Shown piece by piece: positions 2,881 to 17,948 of a stretch of DNA of 64,000 bases. The notes beneath the pieces are model-generated. The model was not told where the DNA came from. It saw only the letters and a program-made list of their open reading frames with translations, and did not search any database. A program made the position numbers and the translations under genes. Position 1 is the first letter of the stretch. Each line of letters begins with the position of its first letter. This DNA comes from Candidatus Babeliales bacterium (GTDB lineage: Bacteria > Babelota > Babeliae > Babelales > JANWKD01): positions 1-64,000 of the forward strand of contig CAVXJH010000005.1 of NCBI GenBank assembly GCA_963762115.1, written 5' to 3'.

Positions 2881-3057
2881 GCATTGGAAAAATATGAATT
2901 GTTTGTGAGTTCTGAAGTTGAGGAAAAACGGCAGCTTATCAAGCTTATACTATCGAACTTGAGGCTAAAGGGGAAAAAGCTTAATATTTTGACCATTAAT
3001 TTTACGTTACAGCACATCCAGACGGCCGTGTCGGGCGACCTGTCCGAAGAAGCTTAA
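2881..3057 (+). pseudogene. C-terminal remnant of a large serine recombinase
   Basis: Own translation: KYELFVSSEVEEKRQLIKLILSNLRLKGKKL-NILTINFTLQHIQTAVSGDLSEEA*; resembles LSR C-termini; tail shared with 4688-4792. Confidence 0.6.
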
Positions 3058-3143
3058 GCGAAGTCGGAAGCTCATAGCGAAGACTAAAGATAATAGATTT
3101 TTTTGAGGTTACAAGATTTTTTTACTTTGTAATAACAACAAGG

Positions 3144-4687: not shown

Positions 4688-4792
4688 CGGTGTCACATAG
4701 TGGATGCATGCAGGAACAATATTTTGACTATTGATTTCACATTACAGCACATCCAGACTGCCGTGTCGGACGACCTGTCCGAAGAAGCTTAA
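4688..4792 (+). pseudogene. att-junction / recombinase C-terminal tail
   Basis: Translates RCHIVDACRNNILTIDFTLQHIQTAVSDDLSEEA*; starts at GGTGT, the same bases as the reverse complement of the tRNA 3' end. Confidence 0.5.
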
Positions 4793-4897
4793 GCGAAGTC
4801 GGAAGCTTGTAGCGAAGACTGATGTTTCGATCGTTTAATATTGCATTAGAAGAATACTAAAAAAAATGCCTCCGACAGATTTTAGTATCGGAGGCTA
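4741..4897 (+). repeat. ~160-bp repeat (recombinase tail, REP-like hairpin, terminator); partial copy 3007-3087, inverted copy 14721-14883
   Basis: TTACAGCACATCCAGAC.GCCGTGT.GG.CGA.CT.TCCGAA.AAGCTTAAGCGAAGTCG.AAGCT..TAGCGAAGACT in all three copies; GCCTCCG...CGGAGG stem in two. Confidence 0.9.
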
Positions 4898-4934
4898 AAT
4901 ATTTTTTGAAAAGAAAAAACTAACAATGTATTAA

Positions 4935-5996
4935 TCAAATTTTATATTTTTCTTTCAAACTTTCAAATTCTTTTTTGACTTCTTCAAAGTCAATTTCAGG
5001 GTCATCATATTTTGTATTAGAATCAAGTGAAATATCGCCTGATATATCTTCGGCACAATTTTTTAATTTTTTAATTCTTTCTATTAACCATTCTTGAGCT
5101 TCTACTTCCATATACTTTAAAAAATTATATCCTAAAGCCATCAAGGATTTCACTTTACAATCTTTCCTTCCCCAATAACGAAAAGAAAAATCTTCAGTAT
5201 CGAAGCAAACAAATTTATTATTATCATCATGAGACCAATTAGTTCCCCAATCACCAAACCCTATTTCTTCAGCTAATGTAGCCAATTGTTGTGTTTCCTT
5301 TAATGAAATCATTTTTTCACCGGGAGAATTAATTTTTTCTGCAAACACTCTCCAAGAATCACCGACTTTTCCTAGATATTTTTTTGGCACATCAAGCTGA
5401 TCAAGCTTATTCACGTGAATACATCTTCTCATGCGTTCCGCATTTATTATGCGAGCAATATCATCATCTTTTAAAAAAAAGTCTGGTAAATCTTTAACTA
5501 TTCCATAATGCACGTGTTTAATATTTTCTTTATATTTTCCTGCTTCTTTGCAAAATATATGAGGAAGACCATATTTTCTAATAAATTTAACTAATTCTGG
5601 ATATTCTTTTGAGTCGACCTCTTCAGGTACATCAACCCTAAATTCAGTTTTTAAAAAATTGGAAAGATCATCTTCTGTTTTTCTCTGAGCTTCATCAGGA
5701 TTATTTCCAGCTTTTATAGCTACATCTTGATATGAATTAATAATTTGGAAGAAATTATGCTTTGATCTTGGTGATGCACCGCTAACTTTTGACATTTCGT
5801 CGTTACAAGCTTTTTTTGTATCTTCATTGATATTACATTCTGGCCATTGTTTTAAAAAGAAGAATAATTGCTCATCAGTAACCGTATTGAAATCTTGATG
5901 TGCAAAAATAGAAATAGTTGAAATGGCCAAGATAATAAAACTAAAAATTTTAACATTTAGTTTGAATTTTTTCATTTTTGTTTTGATACCTTGCAT
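4935..5996 (-). CDS. Secreted protein, possible atypical kinase-like fold; paralog of 16896-17948
   Basis: Signal peptide; RIINAERMRRCI, LDVPKKY, GFGDWGTNW, FVCFDTE; likely start at 5975. Confidence 0.7.
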   Translation of the reverse strand: MQGIKTKMKKFKLNVKIFSFIILAISTISIFAHQDFNTVTDEQLFFFLKQWPECNINEDTKKACNDEMSKVSGASPRSKHNFFQIINSYQDVAIKAGNNPDEAQRKTEDDLSNFLKTEFRVDVPEEVDSKEYPELVKFIRKYGLPHIFCKEAGKYKENIKHVHYGIVKDLPDFFLKDDDIARIINAERMRRCIHVNKLDQLDVPKKYLGKVGDSWRVFAEKINSPGEKMISLKETQQLATLAEEIGFGDWGTNWSHDDNNKFVCFDTEDFSFRYWGRKDCKVKSLMALGYNFLKYMEVEAQEWLIERIKKLKNCAEDISGDISLDSNTKYDDPEIDFEEVKKEFESLKEKYKI

Positions 5997-7091: not shown

Positions 7092-7296
7092 AAAGGTAAC
7101 CCCATTTTTGATAACTATTATTTATAACTCTATAAAGATAGATTACCTTAATTTTACAAAGTCGTCTAACGCCCCATAATAAATTTCAAATAGAAATGAT
7201 ACTATTGACTAAGAAAAAGTTCTATTGTATATAGGCTTATGAGTGATGCAAACTTTAAAATTATTCTTAGACAATTGGGCAGCAGCTGCTGCCCAA

Positions 7297-7470
7297 TTAT
7301 GAATTTGATTTTTTATTAATTTTACTATCTTTCTTAAAAGATCCTAAATCAAAAGAAACCTCTTGTTTTAAGCTTTCCTTAAGACGTTCTAAAATTTCTT
7401 TATTTGCCGGATCAAATAACCAGCGTTCTTCTTCAGAAATTTCTTTCATAGGTTCTAATCTCTTTATATA
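7297..7470 (-). pseudogene. Antitoxin-like C-terminal fragment
   Basis: LEPMKEISEEERWLFDPANKEILERLKESL...DLGSF resembles small antitoxin C-termini; no convincing start; bracketed by palindromes. Confidence 0.4.
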
Positions 7471-7616
7471 TGTGCCCGATATATTGAATTGTCCCACAGC
7501 TGTGGGACAATTGTAAAATGAAATTTTTTTGTAATAAGCAATTTTGCAACAGCTGCTGCAAAATTATAAATTTGAAGAATTTAGACAAACTATCCTCAAA
7601 GAAAGCATCAATAACT

Positions 7617-7951
7617 TTATTTATGTAGAGCAACTGCTTCATGTACGATTTTCGCAATTGTTTTTAAAGTAGGATTACCTTTTTTAGAGAAAGCTTGCGT
7701 AATGGTTACTCTCGTTAGATTTATTTGTGTGCAATTTGCGTTCTATTTACACATAAAAAGGCATCTAATATTTCCATAAATGTTTCAGTATCATTTTCGA
7801 TCAAGCATTCAAACAACGCTTTAGCAACTTCATTCTTATTTCCAAATAATTCTGATGCCTTTGAAACATTTAATTTAGATTCATCAATTTTAAGGGGTTG
7901 TAAATCGCCTAATGAAAATTCGTGCTTTTTTAATGTCTTTTTCTTGTTCAT
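7617..7951 (-). pseudogene. HTH addiction-module antidote protein, frameshifted
   Basis: ALFECLIENDTETFMEIL...NRTQIA, then in a shifted frame NLTRVTITQAFSKKGNPTLKTIAKIV; shift near 7720. Confidence 0.7.
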
Positions 7952-9084
7952 TATTTAGCTTTCTTTTTCTTGCTAACTTTTTTTGTTTTTTTGGGGGCTG
8001 GTTTTTTTTCTGCAACTTCACTCTTACTGAGCTCTGCTTCAATTTCTTTTATAGTAGGTAGTTTGCCCTTAAATTCTTTTGGTAATGTTTCAACTAATTT
8101 AGTTGTATAACTTGATATGCCGATGGGTTGTTTGCTTGTACTTAACGCATATTCGGCTACAAAATTATCTTTTGATTTGCAGAGTAATAGTCCTATAGAG
8201 GGCAAATCTCCTGGATGTCTTAATAGCTTATCAACTGCAGCTAAATATAAATTAATTTGGCCTAAATCTCTGGCATCAAATTCTTCTGCTTTCAGTTCAA
8301 CAACAATAAAACATCGTAGTTGCAAATGATAAAAAAGCATGTCGATAAAAAAATCCTTGGCTCCTACTTTTAAAGGATATTGCCTTCCTATAAAAGCAAA
8401 TCCTTGTCCAAGTTCTAACAAAAACTTTTGAATATGTTCCATGAGGCCCAATTCAATTTCTCGTTCTCGTGCTTTTTCATCAATAGTTAGAAAATCAAAA
8501 ATATAAGGATCTTTTAGGGTCTGTTCAGCTAAATCAGAACTTGGTTCAGGCAGAGTAATTTTAAAATTGGTTATTGATTTGCCTTGTCGGCTATATAAAT
8601 CAGATTCAATCCACATAGAAAGCACACTTCTGCTCCAACCATTTTCAATGGTTTTTTTGGCATACCAAAGTCGTTGTTTATTATCCTGAATTTTTTCTAC
8701 GATAGCAGCGTTATGGCCCCATGGCAGCATTAAAAGAGGATTTTCTTCTATTTGTCCCACAGCTGTGGGACAATTTGGATAAGCGGTATAAAACGCAATC
8801 ATTCTGTATATATTTGTTCTTGAAAATCCGGTTATTCCGGGAAATGCTATCTCTAAATCATGAGCTAATTTTTCTACAACCTTGGCACCCCAACCCTCAA
8901 CGTTCATTTTTTCTGAAAGATCTTTTCCAATTCTCCAATAAAGCAAAGTCAGTTCTGTGGTAACTGATAAAGCTGCCTTAAGTTGTGTTTGAAGAATATC
9001 TTTTTTTATGTGTTCTAAAAACTGAGCATAATTTTTAGGCTCCATAGTTTTTTTTTGAACTGTATTCTTTTTTTTCATGAACAT
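7951..9084 (-). CDS. DUF1016 / YhcG-family PD-(D/E)XK nuclease-domain protein
   Basis: LYWRIG, GWGAKVV, GFSRTN, LPWGHN, GWSRSVL, KDPYIFDFL, FLLELGQGFAFIGRQ, FIDMLFYH, VELK. Confidence 0.93.
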   Translation of the reverse strand: MFMKKKNTVQKKTMEPKNYAQFLEHIKKDILQTQLKAALSVTTELTLLYWRIGKDLSEKMNVEGWGAKVVEKLAHDLEIAFPGITGFSRTNIYRMIAFYTAYPNCPTAVGQIEENPLLMLPWGHNAAIVEKIQDNKQRLWYAKKTIENGWSRSVLSMWIESDLYSRQGKSITNFKITLPEPSSDLAEQTLKDPYIFDFLTIDEKAREREIELGLMEHIQKFLLELGQGFAFIGRQYPLKVGAKDFFIDMLFYHLQLRCFIVVELKAEEFDARDLGQINLYLAAVDKLLRHPGDLPSIGLLLCKSKDNFVAEYALSTSKQPIGISSYTTKLVETLPKEFKGKLPTIKEIEAELSKSEVAEKKPAPKKTKKVSKKKKAK

Positions 9085-9270
9085 CTTTCATCTTTTTAAG
9101 GCTATTCGCGGGTAGATTGCAAAAGCATCTTCTCTATTAAAATCTTAATATTCATAAGTGTTATGTCAAATCAGCTACCATCTCTTTATGCTTTCATGAT
9201 AAACTATGAAAGATGTAATAGAATTAGTGCAGCAGCTGCTGCACTAATATTTGAAATCGAAAGTTGAAAT

Positions 9271-10269
9271 TTATTCTGTAGCAGTAAGTCTTTTTTGTAA
9301 AAAGTCATGGCAGAAAGTAGCAGCTAAATAAATTGGCGTTTTTCCGGATTTGTTTTTTGCCAGCAAATGCTTTGGAGTAACATGACAAATAAGTTCAGCT
9401 AAATCGGCATTGCCTTCAAGAATAGCTTTATGAAGTGGTGTATTTCCTTGTGCATCTCTAACTTCAAAAGCCATACATTGACTCAGCGCTTTCACTTCTT
9501 CGTAATCGCCTAATTTTATAGCATTGAATAATGCATTCCTGAATCTTGAACCATATTTAATTGCTTCACTATTTAAAATATCGATTTGATTTTGTTGCCT
9601 TGCTAAATCGAGTGGGCACTTACCTCGATTATTAAGTATTTTGCAATCAGCTCCACAATTAATCAATAATTGAGCAACGTTTTTATGTCCAAAAAGGCAT
9701 GCATAATGCAATGCAGTTGAACCACTCATATCTTGGATATTTATATCAATATGATTAACAAGTAAGCCTATTGTTTTACAATTTCCCCTACCTATAGCGT
9801 AAAATAATGCAGTTTTTCCATTTGAATCTTGAGCATTACTATTAACCTGCTTTTTATTGAGAAGCCATTTTAAAGCTTTATAGTTGTTACACCCAGCAGC
9901 CACCATTAAAGGTATAATATTTATTGCCAACCTTCCGCCGCCACGAGCATATTTTTGATGCATAGAAATGTTTAAGTTAGCATTATCATTATTAATGATT
10001 GATTTAACTATTTTATTATTACCATTATATATTGCACAATGTAAAGATGCACCCAATGCCTGCATTTTTGAAAATTGAGGTTCTTCCAAATGTGTTCTTG
10101 CATTGATATATTTTTTATCTTTTATTAATAATTGTTGGAATTTTTCAATGTTTCCTTCTCCAGCAGCCCTTACTAATGCTTTAGCATTTTCTTCTTTTTC
10201 TTCCATAGCATTTGTCGTTAGGCCTATAAATAAACTTGCAAACAATGCTATTTTAATGAATTTTGACAT
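9271..10269 (-). CDS. Ankyrin-repeat protein with signal peptide
   Basis: GKTALFYA, GSTALHYA, GNTPLHKA, GKTPIYLA. Confidence 0.9.
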   Translation of the reverse strand: MSKFIKIALFASLFIGLTTNAMEEKEENAKALVRAAGEGNIEKFQQLLIKDKKYINARTHLEEPQFSKMQALGASLHCAIYNGNNKIVKSIINNDNANLNISMHQKYARGGGRLAINIIPLMVAAGCNNYKALKWLLNKKQVNSNAQDSNGKTALFYAIGRGNCKTIGLLVNHIDINIQDMSGSTALHYACLFGHKNVAQLLINCGADCKILNNRGKCPLDLARQQNQIDILNSEAIKYGSRFRNALFNAIKLGDYEEVKALSQCMAFEVRDAQGNTPLHKAILEGNADLAELICHVTPKHLLAKNKSGKTPIYLAATFCHDFLQKRLTATE

Positions 10270-10498
10270 ATATTCCTTTTTGTAGAATTTTTTAAATGAA
10301 AATATAATAATATTATTAAAATAACACTTTTATATTTAATTTCCAAATGAAATCTTTATTGTATGCGAAGGCAAAAAACAACGAAGCTTCGATACAGGAG
10401 CACTATAACCCACGTAAGCCTACTCCAGAAATAATACTTTTATGCTACAATGCTATGGTCAAAAATTACATAATCACCATAAGCATTGAGTATTCACT

Positions 10499-10618
10499 AT
10501 GAAAGCCATTGTCATCGCTCGTGTCAGCACAGAAGAACAAAAAGAAGCGGGTTTGTTATTGCCAGCACAAGTCATGCGCCCTAGAGGAAATTGTCCAACA
10601 GCTGCTGCACAATTATAA
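10499..10618 (+). pseudogene. N-terminal remnant of a serine recombinase
   Basis: Own translation: MKAIVIARVSTEEQKEAGLLLPAQ (catalytic RVST motif), truncated at the palindrome 10589-10614. Confidence 0.75.
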
Positions 10619-10876
10619 ATTACATGATTGTGGATTAAGGAATCGTTTTTTTACAAATGCTCTTCCGGAACCAGATTTTAAATATTTTTCGAATTCAATA
10701 GCGCATTCTTTATCTTTAAATCCTAAAAATACGACGAACTCCCATGGTTTATATTTTGATGTATGTGGTGAAGTGCCTGAATTATGGTTTGAAAGTCTTT
10801 TTTGTAGATCTTCAGTGCAACCAATATATATTTGATCGGGATAATTTATAGCTTGAATGATATAAACGAAATGCAT
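10613..10876 (-). CDS. Small GIY-YIG nuclease
   Basis: FVYII...YIGCTEDLQKRLSNHNSG...FEKYLKSGSGRAF; start reassigned to ATG 10876. Confidence 0.9.
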   Translation of the reverse strand: MHFVYIIQAINYPDQIYIGCTEDLQKRLSNHNSGTSPHTSKYKPWEFVVFLGFKDKECAIEFEKYLKSGSGRAFVKKRFLNPQSCNL

Positions 10877-10900
10877 TTGAAGTGTCCAAGTATTAAAAGA

Positions 10901-11038
10901 TGGCCTGCCAGTCCAGCCTTCGTGTCTCGCTAATGCTCGCTTACTTCGGCGGACAGCTTTCGCTTTCAATTTTCTTTTGTTTATTTATATAGATCATTAA
11001 AAAAACTGGCATGCCAGCTGAAGCTTTAGCGAAAGCTG
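10901..11038. repeat. REP-like GC-rich motifs between the GIY-YIG gene and the tRNA
   Basis: CTTCGGCGGACAGC and TGGCATGCCAGCTGAAGCTTTAGCGAAAGCTGG; related to 4654-4690, 15724-15757 and 37189-37204/38414-38470. Confidence 0.6.
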
Positions 11039-11113
11039 GTGTGCCCGATAGGATTCGAACCTATGACCTACGGATTAGAAATCCGTTGCTCTATCCAGCT
11101 GAGCTACGGGCAC
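11037..11113 (-). tRNA. tRNA-Arg(UCU)
   Basis: GTGCCCG acceptor stem, anticodon arm ACGGA-tt-TCT-aa-TCCGT, GGTTCGAATCC T-loop, encoded CCA. Confidence 0.97.
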
Positions 11114-11222: not shown

Positions 11223-11579
11223 TTAATCTTTTTTTATTTTTTTACAGCATTGAAAACCACAATGCGCTATTTTTCCCAAACCCATACCTATTACAGCGCA
11301 TGCCGTCGACTGCTCAAAAAGATTTGTTGCAGCAATAGATGGTAAATCTGCTCCTTCAAGATAACTCCCACTAGAAACTGCAGCCCAAAACCCTAATCCA
11401 CCACAAACCATACCAGAAACCATAAGACAAGCGGCTTCACAAGAAATATCATCTTCTTTTTTATTATTTTTATTCATTGTTATAGATTGTTTTTTTCGAT
11501 TTTTGTTCATAGCACAAAGATCTTGTGATGTGACAGAAAATATTAGTAAAGACCATGCAACAAGAAAATGACGAATCAT
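11223..11579 (-). CDS. Hypothetical secreted/membrane Cys-rich protein
   Basis: Start reassigned to MIRHFL (AGGAG upstream); paralogous 3' fragment at ~17950-18060. Confidence 0.6.
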   Translation of the reverse strand: MIRHFLVAWSLLIFSVTSQDLCAMNKNRKKQSITMNKNNKKEDDISCEAACLMVSGMVCGGLGFWAAVSSGSYLEGADLPSIAATNLFEQSTACAVIGMGLGKIAHCGFQCCKKIKKD

Positions 11580-11693
11580 GTGACTCCTTTTATTGATTAT
11601 TTTATTAATTTTTTTGATTATATAGATCAGAAGGAATTTGAGCAAACATGTTTATTTTCTGAACCAATTAAAACAATTTTAGGAGAACTTTCA

Positions 11694-12509
11694 ATGCACA
11701 TAAAAATCCAAATATTTATAATTCATTTGTTGTTTTTGGGATCATTAAAAGCCGAAATTCAACCCGAATCATATAGCGAAAGCAATGTTAGGCAATGTAA
11801 ATTTGCAAAACAAGAACTTAGTAAATTAAATTTTTCAGGCAAAGAAAAGATTTTAGATATTGGATCTGGTGATGGTCAAATATCATGCTATATAGCAAAA
11901 AAATTTATTCCAAACGGACAGCTTGTTGGTATTGATAACAGTGCAGAAATGATCGCCTTTGCTTCTTCACGCAAAACAAGTCCTAATGTTTCTTATATTT
12001 GCGCAAATGCTCTGGATTATAGAGCTTTCGAAAAATACAATGCTATTGTTTCATTTTCTACATTGCATTGGATTGAGCCGTATTCAAAAGTTTTGGAAAA
12101 TATTGCTCACTCATTAAAGCCTGGAGGCTATGCTCTTCTTTGTCACGGTATTGAAACGCCACCTTTTCCACCGATAGTACAGAGATTACTTACCACGCAA
12201 AAATGGCACGCATATCAAAATAATGCCGAAGTTCTTAAATATCCATCTTTAATCGAGGTTGCTTCTGCTATTAAAAAATCAGGACTATCTATTGAAAATT
12301 TAGAATTAAAAAAATATGAAAATTGGATATTGCCTGATGTTCTCATTAAAAATTGGCTTTCGTTGCCTCTGTTTGATTTTATCCCGGTTAATTTACGTGA
12401 AGAATTTTGCAAAGAGGTTTTGGAAGAATTTATAAAACAATATCCGCTTAATGATAAAAATGAATTGTTTCATTGGAGCCCGGTTATTGTGATTGTTCTT
12501 AAAAAATAA
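11694..12509 (+). CDS. Class I SAM methyltransferase (trans-aconitate methyltransferase-like)
   Basis: ILDIGSGDG, GIDNSAEMI, SFSTLHW, LKPGG; AGGAG before ATG 11694. Confidence 0.85.
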   Translation: MHIKIQIFIIHLLFLGSLKAEIQPESYSESNVRQCKFAKQELSKLNFSGKEKILDIGSGDGQISCYIAKKFIPNGQLVGIDNSAEMIAFASSRKTSPNVSYICANALDYRAFEKYNAIVSFSTLHWIEPYSKVLENIAHSLKPGGYALLCHGIETPPFPPIVQRLLTTQKWHAYQNNAEVLKYPSLIEVASAIKKSGLSIENLELKKYENWILPDVLIKNWLSLPLFDFIPVNLREEFCKEVLEEFIKQYPLNDKNELFHWSPVIVIVLKK

Positions 12510-13558
12510 TCCATTCGTTGTCTTTAAATATGTGTTAACAGATTGCTCTCAAGTATTTCTTTGGAACAAATTAATTAGCAATTAAGCCCTATATATATTT
12601 CGGAGATTCGAAAGGTCATGAGGCTGGATACAAGCCAATTTTGTGGGGTGAGATACAAATTCTGCGTTCTGTTAAGCAAGAACATGATTGTTCCTTTGAT
12701 GAAGAGTGTGCTTCTGGTTACCACAAAAAAGATATGTATTCTATTTGGAAATAATTGAAAGCGAATTTAAATATAATGTCGATTATAAGTTTCTAAAAAA
12801 AGACTAGAATTATCTAAATAATCTTACATGTAGCATACTTTTAAGCAGTAATTGTTATCTTTCGCTCTTTTAAAAAAAATTCACAGAGGGCTAAATTGAT
12901 ATTTTTACATAACAATTGTAAACTAATGACAATTAAGATGATTCTACTAAGGAGCCTATGTTTATGAAATTAAAAAATCTAAAAATATTTTTATTTTCTA
13001 TTTGTTATTTTGGATCTGTGTGCCCAGCTTTTTATAGAGGAGTTGTATATGAACGCTTTAATGAAGACACCAAAACTAAACAATATGTAGTTTTATTAAG
13101 TGATATCCATTTTCAAACAAAAGCTTTAAATTTATCTCACATTAAAAGTATGGATAAACTACTCAGAACTTTTAGAGAAAATGGTACACAAAAAGAAATA
13201 CTTTTTATGGCAGAAGATCTCGCTTCATATGAAGGTGATAATCAATTTATTCGAGATGCTAATAATAAAAGAAGTGTTTATTATTTATCTGAAGAAAATC
13301 TTAGTGATATAGATGGCGTTAACCCCTTAGCCTCTTTGGTAAGAGCTGCAAAAGAAGATAAATTTGATGTAATAAATCTTGAGCATCGTTTTTTGCGTAG
13401 TAGCATTGTTCCTTTTACAGCAGAGCAATTACAGGGCAGATGGCCTAATTCTGATGAAAATATTTATAAAGGTGGTTTCACAACACAAGCAGTGACTAAA
13501 GAATCATCTGATACTATGCAGCGATTTACTGAAGATTCTAATAGGCGAAAAGAAAAAT

Positions 13559-14120
13559 TAAACAACACACGGCTTAAAAGCCGTGGATTTAGAAGCGCGA
13601 GATGAAAGCTTTTTATTGATTTCTAACATAATTGAGAATTGTCTCTTCTGAACATTGTCCAAATGTTTCAGAGAAATATCCATCTGCCCAAAAATCGTTA
13701 CCCCACAAAAATTTCTTTATTTCAGGTAATTCAGCTCTGAGCATTTTACTTGAAATTCCCTTGAGTAATTGAACGGCCTTGCTCACACTCACACTTGGTG
13801 GTAATTGTATTACAAGATGCACATGGTCTATCTGAATATTTAGTTCTTGAATTTCCCATGCATTAATTTCCGCACATTCTCGCAAAAGTTCTTCTAGCCT
13901 GCTCTTAACTTTGCCTTCTAATACTTTTTTTCTATATTTAGGTAACCAAACTATATGATACATATGCCAATGAGTTGTATGCGCTCCGTGCCAATATTTC
14001 TTTGTCATGTCAATTAGTATGACAAAACTAACCTCACTTCGCAAAAATTTACATTTTTGCTTCGCTCGCGCATTTGATGACATTCATCCCCAGGTTTAAA
14101 ACCCTGGGGTTTTCTGTCAT
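13559..14120 (-). mobile_element. IS200/IS605-family element, tnpA only, 562 bp
   Basis: Subterminal hairpins CCCCAGG-gttttaaa-CCTGGGG and CACGGCTT-tt-AAGCCGTG; inserted 3' of TCAT; no target duplication. Confidence 0.85.
13613..14008 (-). CDS. tnpA: Y1 HUH transposase TnpA
   Basis: YHIVWLPKYRK, DHVHL (HUH), FWADGYF, YVRNQ. Confidence 0.95.
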   Translation of the reverse strand: MTKKYWHGAHTTHWHMYHIVWLPKYRKKVLEGKVKSRLEELLRECAEINAWEIQELNIQIDHVHLVIQLPPSVSVSKAVQLLKGISSKMLRAELPEIKKFLWGNDFWADGYFSETFGQCSEETILNYVRNQ

Positions 14121-14884
14121 ATGAAATAAAAACAATTTTTAATAATTCCTCACAATTAGCCAAAGATTTAAAAATAACTGAAGAGCGATGGGAATCGTTC
14201 AAAAAAAATTATGGTGATAGAATTAAGGAAAAACAAGAATTACTTAAAAATTATGATGGCACCTTACATCAATTTCTTAATGAAAAAGTTACATTAGAAA
14301 AAAGAGATGAATTTTTAGGTTCATTTTTAATTACCGATGAAGATCTTCTTGTAATAAAAGCTTTGGATGGTGTTGCCAATAACCCCAATAAGAAAAAGAT
14401 AATTATTGCTGCTGGTGGGTTACACATTAGAGATCTCGAACCCCTTCTTGAAAAAATGGGATTTGAGCAAATTATACAAGAGGGAAAAGAGTTAAGTGGA
14501 TGCATGAAAGATAATGTTGATAAAGTTAAAGCTAAATTCAATCAAAATCATTCTAACTACCAAGCAAGAATGCTCAATGCAAAAACTGTTGCAGATATGC
14601 GCAGTATATTAGGCGAAGATGTATCTTTAGTATCTGATAAATTTTTTGCTTATGTTGCTTTTCTTGGAAAAAAATAAAAAATAATTTTTTTGTCTTTGGA
14701 TATCTCTTAACATAAACCTTTAGCCTCCGACATATTAGAATAAAATCTGCCGGAGGATTTTTTTAGTATTCTTCTAATACAATATTAAATGATCAAAGCA
14801 TTAGTCTTCGCTACGAGCTTTCGACTTCGCTTAAGCTTATTCGGAGAGATCGCCCAACACGGCCGTCTGGATGTGCTGTAATAA

Positions 14885-16895: not shown

Positions 16896-17948
16896 ATGGA
16901 GTCAAATGTGTTCTATTTGAAATATTTTAACTCAAAAATAATACTTATTTTTAGTGTTGTTCTCTTAACTGCTTTTAATACTTTTACCACTCAGGATTTT
17001 ACCACGGTCACTAATGAACAGGTATTACATTTTCTTAAACAGTGGCCTGAATGCACCGTAAATAAAAACACAAAAAGAGCATGCAATAAGGAAATAACAG
17101 ATTTAAAAAGCACCTCTTTGAGAAAAAGACGTAACTTCTTTCAAATCGTTAACTCATACCAAGATGTAGCTATACTAGCAGGAAAAACACCTGAAGAAGC
17201 TCAGAAAAAGACAGAAAAAGATTTCACCACTTTTTTCAAAACAGAATTTAGCGCTGATGTTCCTGGAGAAGTCGATCCCCAAAAATATCCAGAATTAGTT
17301 AAATTTATTAGAAAATATGGGTTTCCTCGTATCTATTGCAAAGAAGCAGAAAAATATAAAGAAAGCATCGAATACAGAAATTATGGCGTTGCTAAAGATT
17401 TCCCAAGCTTCTTTTTGAAAAATACTGATATTGATCGAATCATCAATGCTGAACGCATGAGAAGATGCATTGAAATACATAACCTTGATCAACTTGATGT
17501 GCCGCAAAAATATTTGGGTAAGGTTGGTAATACTTGGAGGGTTTTTGCAGAAAATATTAATTCTCCTAGAGGCAAGATTATTTCACTAAAAGAAACACAA
17601 CAATTAGCCAAAGTCGCTGAAGAAACTGGATTTAGTGATTGGAGAACGAATTGGAACTATGATGACAATAACAAATTTGTTTGCATCGACACTGAAAATT
17701 CATCATTTTATTGTTGGAGAGATTGTAAACTTGACTCATTGATCACTTTATGGAGGCATTTTCATACGCATATGGAAAAGGAAGCTCAAGGATGGTTAGT
17801 AAGAAGAATTGAAGAATTAGAAAATTCTCCTGAAGGAAAAGCTCAAATTACATCACTGAACATTAATACAAAATATGACGATCCTGACATTGATTTTGAA
17901 AAAGTTAAAGAAGAATTTGCAGAATTAAAACGATCAAAAAACATTTAA
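16896..17948 (+). CDS. Secreted protein, paralog of 4935-5996
   Basis: Shared blocks LKQWPEC, NFFQI.NSYQDVAI, YPELVKFIRKYG, RIINAERMRRCI, KYDDP.IDFE. Confidence 0.75.
   Translation: MESNVFYLKYFNSKIILIFSVVLLTAFNTFTTQDFTTVTNEQVLHFLKQWPECTVNKNTKRACNKEITDLKSTSLRKRRNFFQIVNSYQDVAILAGKTPEEAQKKTEKDFTTFFKTEFSADVPGEVDPQKYPELVKFIRKYGFPRIYCKEAEKYKESIEYRNYGVAKDFPSFFLKNTDIDRIINAERMRRCIEIHNLDQLDVPQKYLGKVGNTWRVFAENINSPRGKIISLKETQQLAKVAEETGFSDWRTNWNYDDNNKFVCIDTENSSFYCWRDCKLDSLITLWRHFHTHMEKEAQGWLVRRIEELENSPEGKAQITSLNINTKYDDPDIDFEKVKEEFAELKRSKNI

Follow-up and report, generated by a model that had tools for sequence, protein, structure and literature searches.

Several protein families read a palindromic DNA site through a few specificity residues, which lie in the recognition helix and where a later helix begins, among them ParB/Spo0J at parS, Noc at NBS, KorB at OB, and SopB at sopC. 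In Bacillus subtilis, a parS site lies within spo0J. According to passages of Jalal et al. 2020 (PMC7383237), ParB contacts parS via helices 4, 6, and 8, and residues R173 and G201 set the specificity. Here, we report on a gene of the DUF1016/YhcG family (7951..9084, minus strand) in a 64,000-nucleotide stretch of DNA from a Candidatus Babeliales bacterium (positions 1 to 64,000 of contig CAVXJH010000005.1, assembly GCA_963762115.1; referred to below as the window). The gene carries within its coding region a 26-bp palindrome (8750..8775), which, to judge from sequence comparison across the family, is probably the binding site of the encoded protein itself. An earlier note on this DNA had pointed out this palindrome and five variant copies around the gene and had offered three models: the protein binds a site that encodes part of itself, the flanking copies are donors that diversify this peptide, or the copies are cleavage or recombination sites.

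The best structural matches of the N-terminal domain of this protein are members of the ParB-type systems. Unlike those, it has no CTPase domain, and a PD-(D/E)XK nuclease is fused behind the DNA-binding part. Its site also differs in being 26 to 27 bp long, with two spacings and a fixed codon position between the specificity residues, and many shuffled specificities coexist in the family. Type II restriction-modification (R-M) systems and homing endonucleases likewise combine a site-specific reader with a nuclease in a mobile single gene. However, the DUF1016 gene has no methylase partner as type II R-M systems do, and its site, rather than being interrupted by the gene as for homing endonucleases, is intact inside it (163/188 genes). 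Repetitive extragenic palindromic (REP)/RAYT elements and integron attC sites are also short palindromes beside or inside genes or between co-oriented cargo genes. The same applies to Rickettsia palindromic elements (RPE), as described in part of PMC4316617. In contrast to REP, RPE, and attC, the DUF1016 palindrome has at most 8 pattern matches per genome, measures 26 to 27 bp rather than 100 to 150 nt, and is tied to a single codon position in one family. The likeness to attC is one of gene-palindrome-gene layout.

The DUF1016/YhcG family comprises at least 7995 clusters, is found in 456 plasmid records, and includes yhcG of Escherichia coli K-12. Passages of two papers (PMC9881135 and PMC4316617) place its genes near invertible R-M loci, near BREX loci, and on mobile elements, and these passages are silent on any palindrome, binding site, or ParB-like domain. 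No substrate of DUF1016/YhcG was found in the open literature, and no published description of the in-gene palindrome was found there either (subscription papers not covered). The palindrome is a real, family-wide, and apparently undescribed feature.

The in-gene palindrome is conserved as duplex DNA

In the window, the in-gene palindrome forms 12 of 13 arm pairs and occupies codons 104 to 111, which encode NCPTAVGQ; this peptide and all others quoted in the earlier note were read correctly. That note had asked whether the segment is palindromic across DUF1016 homologs, and in most of them it is. We scored the segment between the predicted recognition helix and the WGH motif in 188 distinct genes alignable at both landmarks. 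At least 9 of 12 pairs were formed in 163/188 genes, compared with 109/2460 control windows of the same length taken from the same genes, and at least 10 of 12 pairs were formed in 130/188 genes versus 8/2460 control windows. In E. coli K-12 yhcG, such units occur three times in frame and once more beyond the gene, centered 27 bp past the stop codon.

The palindrome comes in a 26-bp and a 27-bp form, in which the left arm is read in different frames. Therefore, it is the DNA symmetry that is kept, not the peptide. Among 10 genes with the same allele, the 4-fold degenerate sites were invariant in 4/5 palindrome codons versus 0/27 other codons. Sense-strand mismatches at positions 5 to 11 showed no bias to G.U (G.T, 9; A.C, 21). 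These patterns indicate that the constraint acts on duplex DNA and not on the peptide or on RNA. The peptide was also considered as the specificity determinant and was rejected, because it forms the least confident loop of the structural model and its frame differs between the two forms.

Residues flanking the palindrome co-vary with its bases

A register filter was passed by 157 of the 188 genes, and two rows with a spurious best palindrome (G0C3 and L252) were left out of the final counts. Mutual information was calculated for about 313 protein columns in 87 rows thinned to less than 70% identity, and codons 102 to 121 were excluded when columns were ranked by their information on the half-site bases. 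The top corrected pairs were residue 90 with position 7 (z 11), residue 94 with position 9 (z 11), and residue 123 with position 10 (z 7; positions 10 and 11), and the next informative columns were 93, 99, 152/153, and 130. These columns had also been the most informative before thinning. In the window, the predicted recognition-helix codons (residues 89 to 101) lie at 8782..8820 on the minus strand, and residues 89/90 and 93/94 change together with the half-site bases at 7, 9, and 5. All of the specificity residues (89/90, 93/94, 123, 130, and 152/153) flank the palindrome-coded peptide, which is a tolerant linker.

A rule with only two residues describes most of this pattern: R90 goes with G at position 7 and any other residue with a base other than G, while R94 goes with a base other than A at position 9 and any other residue with A. 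This rule fitted 140/152 genes, with all four residue combinations present, and the remaining 12/152 showed a mismatch between helix and site. The gene in the window, with T90 and R94 and a C at both positions 7 and 9, obeys it. Because four matched combinations occur, and in both arms, a single swapped block cannot produce the code. On a FastTree phylogeny built from the region C-terminal to the WGH motif (151 rows), residue/base states change 21 to 26 times. Independent pairs on that tree supported the rule by 12.0 to 0 for residue 90 and by 10.7 to 0 for residue 94, of 13 (median p, 0.0005 and 0.001, respectively); residue 123 was weaker in this test (median p, 0.06). Finally, the rule, fixed beforehand, fitted 41/41 new genes from two other phyla (those of G262 and G261). 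Two further genes from these phyla, with 8/12 pairs, were excluded; one of them fits and the other does not.

A ParB-like fold is predicted in front of a nuclease domain

The gene in the window encodes a protein of 377 amino acids with a predicted N-terminal ParB-like DNA-binding domain and a PD-(D/E)XK nuclease domain. It matched PF17761 (DUF1016_N; E 1.7e-38, 132 bits) and PF06250 (YhcG_C; E 9.5e-64, 214 bits), both above the cut-off. The catalytic residues of the PD-(D/E)XK domain (D248, E263, and K265) are invariant across 121 homologs. In the full-length model, with a predicted local distance difference test (pLDDT) score of 73, the fold of the C-terminal domain resembles NucS/EndoMS (NucS 2vld; Z 10.1, root mean square deviation [rmsd] 2.9, 107 residues aligned). 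The protein also matched the profile of the PADLOC phage-defense candidate PDC-S02 (E 5e-140). The PDC systems are themselves predictions, and PDC-S02 goes unnamed in the passages of the main text of their report (10.1101/2024.01.29.577857). A defense role of the gene is a prediction from this profile match.

The N-terminal domain modeled alone reached a pLDDT of 90. Its best folds were the ParB-parS structure 6s6h (Z 6.6, rmsd 4.1, 99 residues aligned), Spo0J (Z 6.0), SopB (Z 5.6), and KorB (Z 5.5); the ParB family took 6 of the 9 top fold rows, and ParB, Spo0J, and Noc headed the Foldseek list, with E values no better than 0.13. Three helices of the model (89 to 101, 122 to 131, and 152 to 160) contain the co-varying residues. 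When matched by motif and spacing, R89 corresponds to ParB R173 and G123 to ParB G201: they are 28 to 29 residues apart in the short alleles, compared with 28 in ParB, and the palindrome-coded peptide is the linker between them. From these models, we predict that the N-terminal domain has a ParB/KorB/Noc fold with the specificity residues in the counterparts of the three DNA-contacting helices of ParB. No Pfam match to a ParB/Srx CTPase domain was found in the protein, whose residues 16 to 63 form a single long helix, and HTH_ParB (PF17762) gave no match in the 41 Babeliales genomes searched.

A promoter-like -35/-10 pair, matching the consensus at 10/12 positions, lies at 9142..9169 on the minus strand, within a stretch shared with the copy of the gene in a related genome (G110, see below). 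The genome is 95% complete and contains only one other DUF1016_N gene (C3:140194-141303, minus strand), which is 52% identical, has S at residue 123 and R94, and carries its own imperfect 27-bp palindrome. No loose copies were found near it. As to population variation, none of four runs available as contigs covered 8750-8775, and X1, which may be the source of the window, showed no differences from it across seven short pieces.

Most loose copies in the window belong to another class than the resident site

The six 26-bp elements centered on CAGCTG start at 7273, 7487, 7540, 8750, 9223, and 10589 and form 13, 13, 12, 12, 13, and 11 of 13 arm pairs, respectively. Their number, positions, and pairing within 3.4 kb were reproduced as first noticed, and three of the six (7273, 7487, and 9223) are perfect. 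The core shared by the copy at 7487 and the in-gene copy, first given as 22 bp, is in fact identical over 24 bp (7489-7512 and 8752-8775). With a degenerate palindrome pattern, which missed the copy at 9223, the window yielded 11 strand-hits where 0.28 were expected. A matrix built from the six copies found the same six, and none besides, in the whole 1.53-Mb genome, so the observation that the window has no others holds genome-wide. With the family-wide matrix, the six copies scored 32 to 39, and two weak matches (17 and 12) appeared on contig C3, the level of the shuffle controls (0 to 2 matches). A weak 27-bp copy of the same class lies in an intergenic spacer at C3:554534-554560 (L294:4535-4561), about 414 kb from the second DUF1016 gene. 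A genome-wide repeat, which had been named as an outcome that would speak against a tie to DUF1016, was rejected, because the strong copies are confined to 3.4 kb around the gene. The 26-bp pattern was found in 59/261 Babeliae genomes, with 1 to 8 matches each, chance matches counted. All copies are indeed free of stops in the equivalent frame, but this carries little weight: it is expected by chance for 91% of class-sampled palindromes and 54% of those with random arms, and we rejected it as evidence.

Only one of the five loose copies, the perfect palindrome at 7487..7512, fits the resident T90/R94 protein, and it is likely a second site for the resident allele. The other four have A at position 9 and G at position 7 in at least one arm, and 3/4 of them match the in-gene sites of other homologs within one base. 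The copies at 7273..7298, 7540..7565, and 9223..9248 belong to this G7/A9 class. The first of them is perfect, overlaps the stop codon of an antitoxin fragment, and is identical over its inner 22 bp to the in-gene site of L131; the second differs by one mismatch from the sites within the L009, L047, and L087 genes and has a homologous copy in the G110 island; the third is perfect and lies between the ankyrin stop codon and the promoter region of the DUF1016 gene. The copy at 10589..10614 (11/13 pairs) stands at the truncation of a recombinase gene and overlaps the stop codon of a GIY-YIG gene; it either differs by a single mismatch from the site within L008 or combines two classes as a hybrid. 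In the resident gene's own clade, the G7/A9 class is frequent (9/14 rows), and no gene of this class was found in the genome. The second DUF1016 gene was tried as an explanation of the four misfit copies and rejected, because it also has R94. The four copies are likely relics of an earlier or another allele, carried along and duplicated at cassette junctions.

Loose copies near other DUF1016 genes mostly fit the local helix

Within 1.6 kb of other DUF1016 genes, 38 loose copies were found, although low-GC copies such as that of L007 were missed by this flank scan. Both halves agreed with the local helix in 27 of these, a single half in 1, and neither half in 10, compared with a fit of about 31% expected from the class frequency.

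We then compared 157 genes whose flanks extended for 400 bp on either side, counting a site as weak or lost when it had at most 6/9 inner pairs. A fitting copy was present near 7/17 genes with a weak or lost site versus 15/140 genes with a kept site, and 4/17 versus 0/140 genes were bracketed on both sides by fitting copies. Like duplicated junctions, bracketing copies share flanks beyond the palindrome in L095, L007, L115, and L260, with scores of 8.5 to 24 against a null 99th percentile of 4.5; those of L099 have no common flank. No empty site was found for the bracketed genes: in G210, the L007 position is taken by an unrelated gene, and there is no synteny for L095 and L050.

We also examined 12 distant loci with loose copies: at 4 of them, the copy lies in or beside pieces of DUF1016 genes, and 1 has such a piece 4 kb off. 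In L129, L101, L258, and L267, short palindrome-centered DUF1016 coding pieces are loose in intergenic DNA, with several in a row past the stop codon in L129. At two other loci (L115:13600-17400 and L260:5250-7920), duplicated junctions that carry the palindrome alternate with tandem ankyrin genes; L260 has no DUF1016 trace nearby.

The gene lies in an eroded island at a tRNA gene

This region forms an eroded island at tRNA-Arg(TCT) (11037..11113, minus strand), the attachment gene. G110 is a closed genome of the same genus and has at the same tRNA an intact 505-amino-acid serine recombinase, a Gp49-like killer gene with its HI1420 antidote, and a Fic gene. In the window, only a 5' remnant of the large serine recombinase is left (10499..10590, plus strand), and the HI1420-type addiction-module antidote, intact in G110, is frameshifted (7620..7951, minus strand; the low coordinate is approximate). 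The DUF1016 gene occupies the place of the Gp49-like killer gene. The G110 island has a palindrome on the 3' side of the antidote, homologous to the copy at 7540, with no DUF1016 gene there. The DUF1016 gene of G110, 91% identical from 9176 to the stop codon and of the same allele, is found about 490 kb from the island, in a duplication of about 150 bp of the 3' end of hpf, with no loose palindromes. Therefore, the DUF1016 gene is mobile as a unit of one gene, and the presence of at least one loose copy does not depend on it.

The other island genes are an ankyrin-repeat gene as cargo (9271..10269, minus strand) and the GIY-YIG gene (10613..10969, minus strand), both with Pfam matches, and a C-terminal antitoxin fragment (7297..7460, minus strand). 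The latter belongs to an AbrB/MazE-like family common in Babeliae (33/261 genomes match), with full-length homologs; MazE_antitoxin matched one homolog (L293) weakly, below the cut-off. An 11-bp direct repeat of the tRNA-Arg 3' end (7471..7481, plus strand) may be an att remnant of the serine-recombinase island, which is suggestive only, as three matches to the 11-mer occur in 30 kb. No DNA methyltransferase gene stands beside the DUF1016 gene, whose neighbors are the antidote, ankyrin, recombinase remnant, and GIY-YIG genes here and hpf in G110. An S-adenosylmethionine (SAM) methyltransferase gene at 11568-12509 is beyond the tRNA and has matches of the small-molecule type. At 11667-12513, the SAM methyltransferase gene shares 90% identity with a G109 copy next to a recombinase remnant and looks recently exchanged.

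Several of the copies had been placed at breakpoints, which is borne out for two of them. Homology with the intact G110 recombinase gene runs to 10580, plausibly into the outer arm of the copy at 10589, and the copy at 7540 stands at the start of homology with G110. In contrast, the copy at 7273 overlaps a natural stop codon, and about 29 bp, with the 11-bp tRNA repeat in this gap, separate the one at 7487 from the point where the match to most antitoxin homologs starts. The recombinase remnant of G109 (L052:9885-9966) has an 8-bp deletion at the spot where the window remnant ends. A 90-bp piece at 2892-2981, separated from the 5' remnant by 7.5 kb, is 98% identical to the 3' end of the G110 serine recombinase; the island has undergone rearrangement.

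Other repeats were noticed in the window. A noncoding element of 100 to 180 bp, 84 to 93% identical, is repeated in both orientations at 2983-3085, 4718-4899, and 14719-14882 and also occurs in G108-G111. An IS200-type transposase (13613-14083) has at least six copies in G110, and 4935-5996 and 16896-17948 encode paralogs of about 350 amino acids with 75% DNA identity, the first without a Pfam match.

Discussion

We lean toward the view that the DUF1016 gene carries its own site, which is read by the predicted ParB-like helix-turn-helix domain of its product, and that binding in cis keeps the nuclease in check. A dimer of the protein would bind the palindrome. With the site in the linker codons between the specificity residues, reader and site would travel as one block of about 130 bp, and the gene would never enter a new host without its own site. 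The bound protein could then limit its own transcription or dock in an inactive state, replacing a protective methylase, with a roadblock, looping, or docking as the means; this is the least certain step, and we give restraint in cis about an even chance at best. Because the in-gene site is intact and there is no methylase, free cutting there is impossible, and since sites occur inside, before, and after the gene, restraint in cis is favored over cutting. The model of a protein that binds a site coding for part of itself thus gains from the co-variation of the site with residues of the ParB-like domain, but the specificity residues flank the encoded peptide rather than lie in it, and only 1/5 loose copies fit the resident protein.

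Several points weigh against this view. In the window, 4/5 loose copies misfit the neighboring gene, as do 10/38 elsewhere, and 7/12 distant loci have intergenic copies with no DUF1016 trace within about 6 kb. Many fitting copies sit just past the stop codon, which promoter repression does not explain. The excess of bracketed genes with a decayed site (4/17) rests on three Babeliae genomes and on a definition revised after the first version (any fitting copy), which gave p 0.054. The fold scores are middling (Z below 8, Foldseek E of at least 0.13, Raf1 third), and no sequence profile links the N-terminal domain to ParB, the profile comparison with a ParB sequence being empty. E. coli yhcG has K90 and yet G at position 7 in 3/4 copies, unless K counts as R. 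Kin among the rows make the counts of 41 and 152 genes less than independent. Moreover, the helix-plus-site block looks exchanged between genes (L023 and L005 are 50% identical in residues 84 to 101 versus 63 to 80% elsewhere), and because helix and site are physically linked in such a mosaic, part of the co-variation is shared inheritance.

The main rival, which we regard as unlikely, is that binding to the palindrome directs the protein to cut or recombine next to it. The sites would then serve for entry and exit: the gene inserts at a fitting site and duplicates it, and its later loss leaves a single scar. The invariant catalytic residues, the four genes cleanly bracketed by fitting copies, the flanks shared by the bracketing copies in L095, L007, L115, and L260, the position of the copies at 7540 and 10589 at homology edges, and the single intergenic copies far from any DUF1016 gene all speak for it. 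However, the G110 gene sits in the hpf duplication without a loose palindrome, a fitting copy within 500 bp is lacking from 125/140 genes with a kept site, the bracketing copies of L099 lack a common flank, and no empty site was found. The in-gene site is also intact with no methylase gene in the island, and the recombinase remnant of G109 suffered its independent 8-bp deletion at the same spot with no palindrome there.

A bolder version of restraint in cis, which we hold to be a little less likely still, is that the DUF1016/YhcG genes are self-sufficient toxin modules in which the DNA acts as the antitoxin: the nuclease would be kept inactive on the palindrome of its own gene and released when this DNA is lost, degraded, or outnumbered, as in phage attack or loss of the element, and bracketing copies would let the gene move as a cassette.

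Template switching repairs quasi-palindromes (the Ripley model) and would account for perfect relics. It is quite improbable, however, that the palindrome has no reader and is merely a hot spot of template switching or recombination, kept symmetric by replication and co-varying through block inheritance. The apparent swapping of helix-plus-site blocks and the loose copies that are relics of DUF1016 gene pieces (L258 and L267) are in its favor, but each of the four residue/base combinations is seen with the predicted bases, in both arms; residue-specific peaks flank the site; 41/41 new genes fit the rule; and fitting copies stand in the flanks of genes with a decayed site.

In the second model of the earlier note, which is very improbable, the loose copies would act as silent donors, and copying them into the gene would vary the peptide. 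Three of the four misfit copies do match in-gene sites of other homologs within one base, and one copy is in frame with the antitoxin fragment. However, copying 26 bp would uncouple the site from the helix, and such a mismatch is rare (12/152 genes); the resident allele equals that of G110 after about 9% nucleotide divergence, despite four alternatives nearby; the flanks of the loose copies are unlike those of the gene; and most genes have no loose copy nearby. An RNA hairpin serving as a guide, processing signal, or terminator, suggested by the location of 4/5 loose copies just downstream of co-oriented genes, is hardly credible given mismatches without G.U bias, no terminator or Rfam match at the copies, and a partner domain with a predicted DNA-binding fold.

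The window adds to the family a case of mixed alleles and a sister genome in which site and gene are separated. If our view is correct, each gene names its own target, so that binding and cleavage could be tested for any member, and a nuclease branch would be added to the ParB fold. Hundreds of natural protein-site pairs would become available for studying how DNA specificity evolves, and the family would show how a nuclease can travel safely without a methylase. If the DNA does act as the antitoxin, the family would amount to a natural collection of orthogonal specificities whose residue-to-base code can be read.

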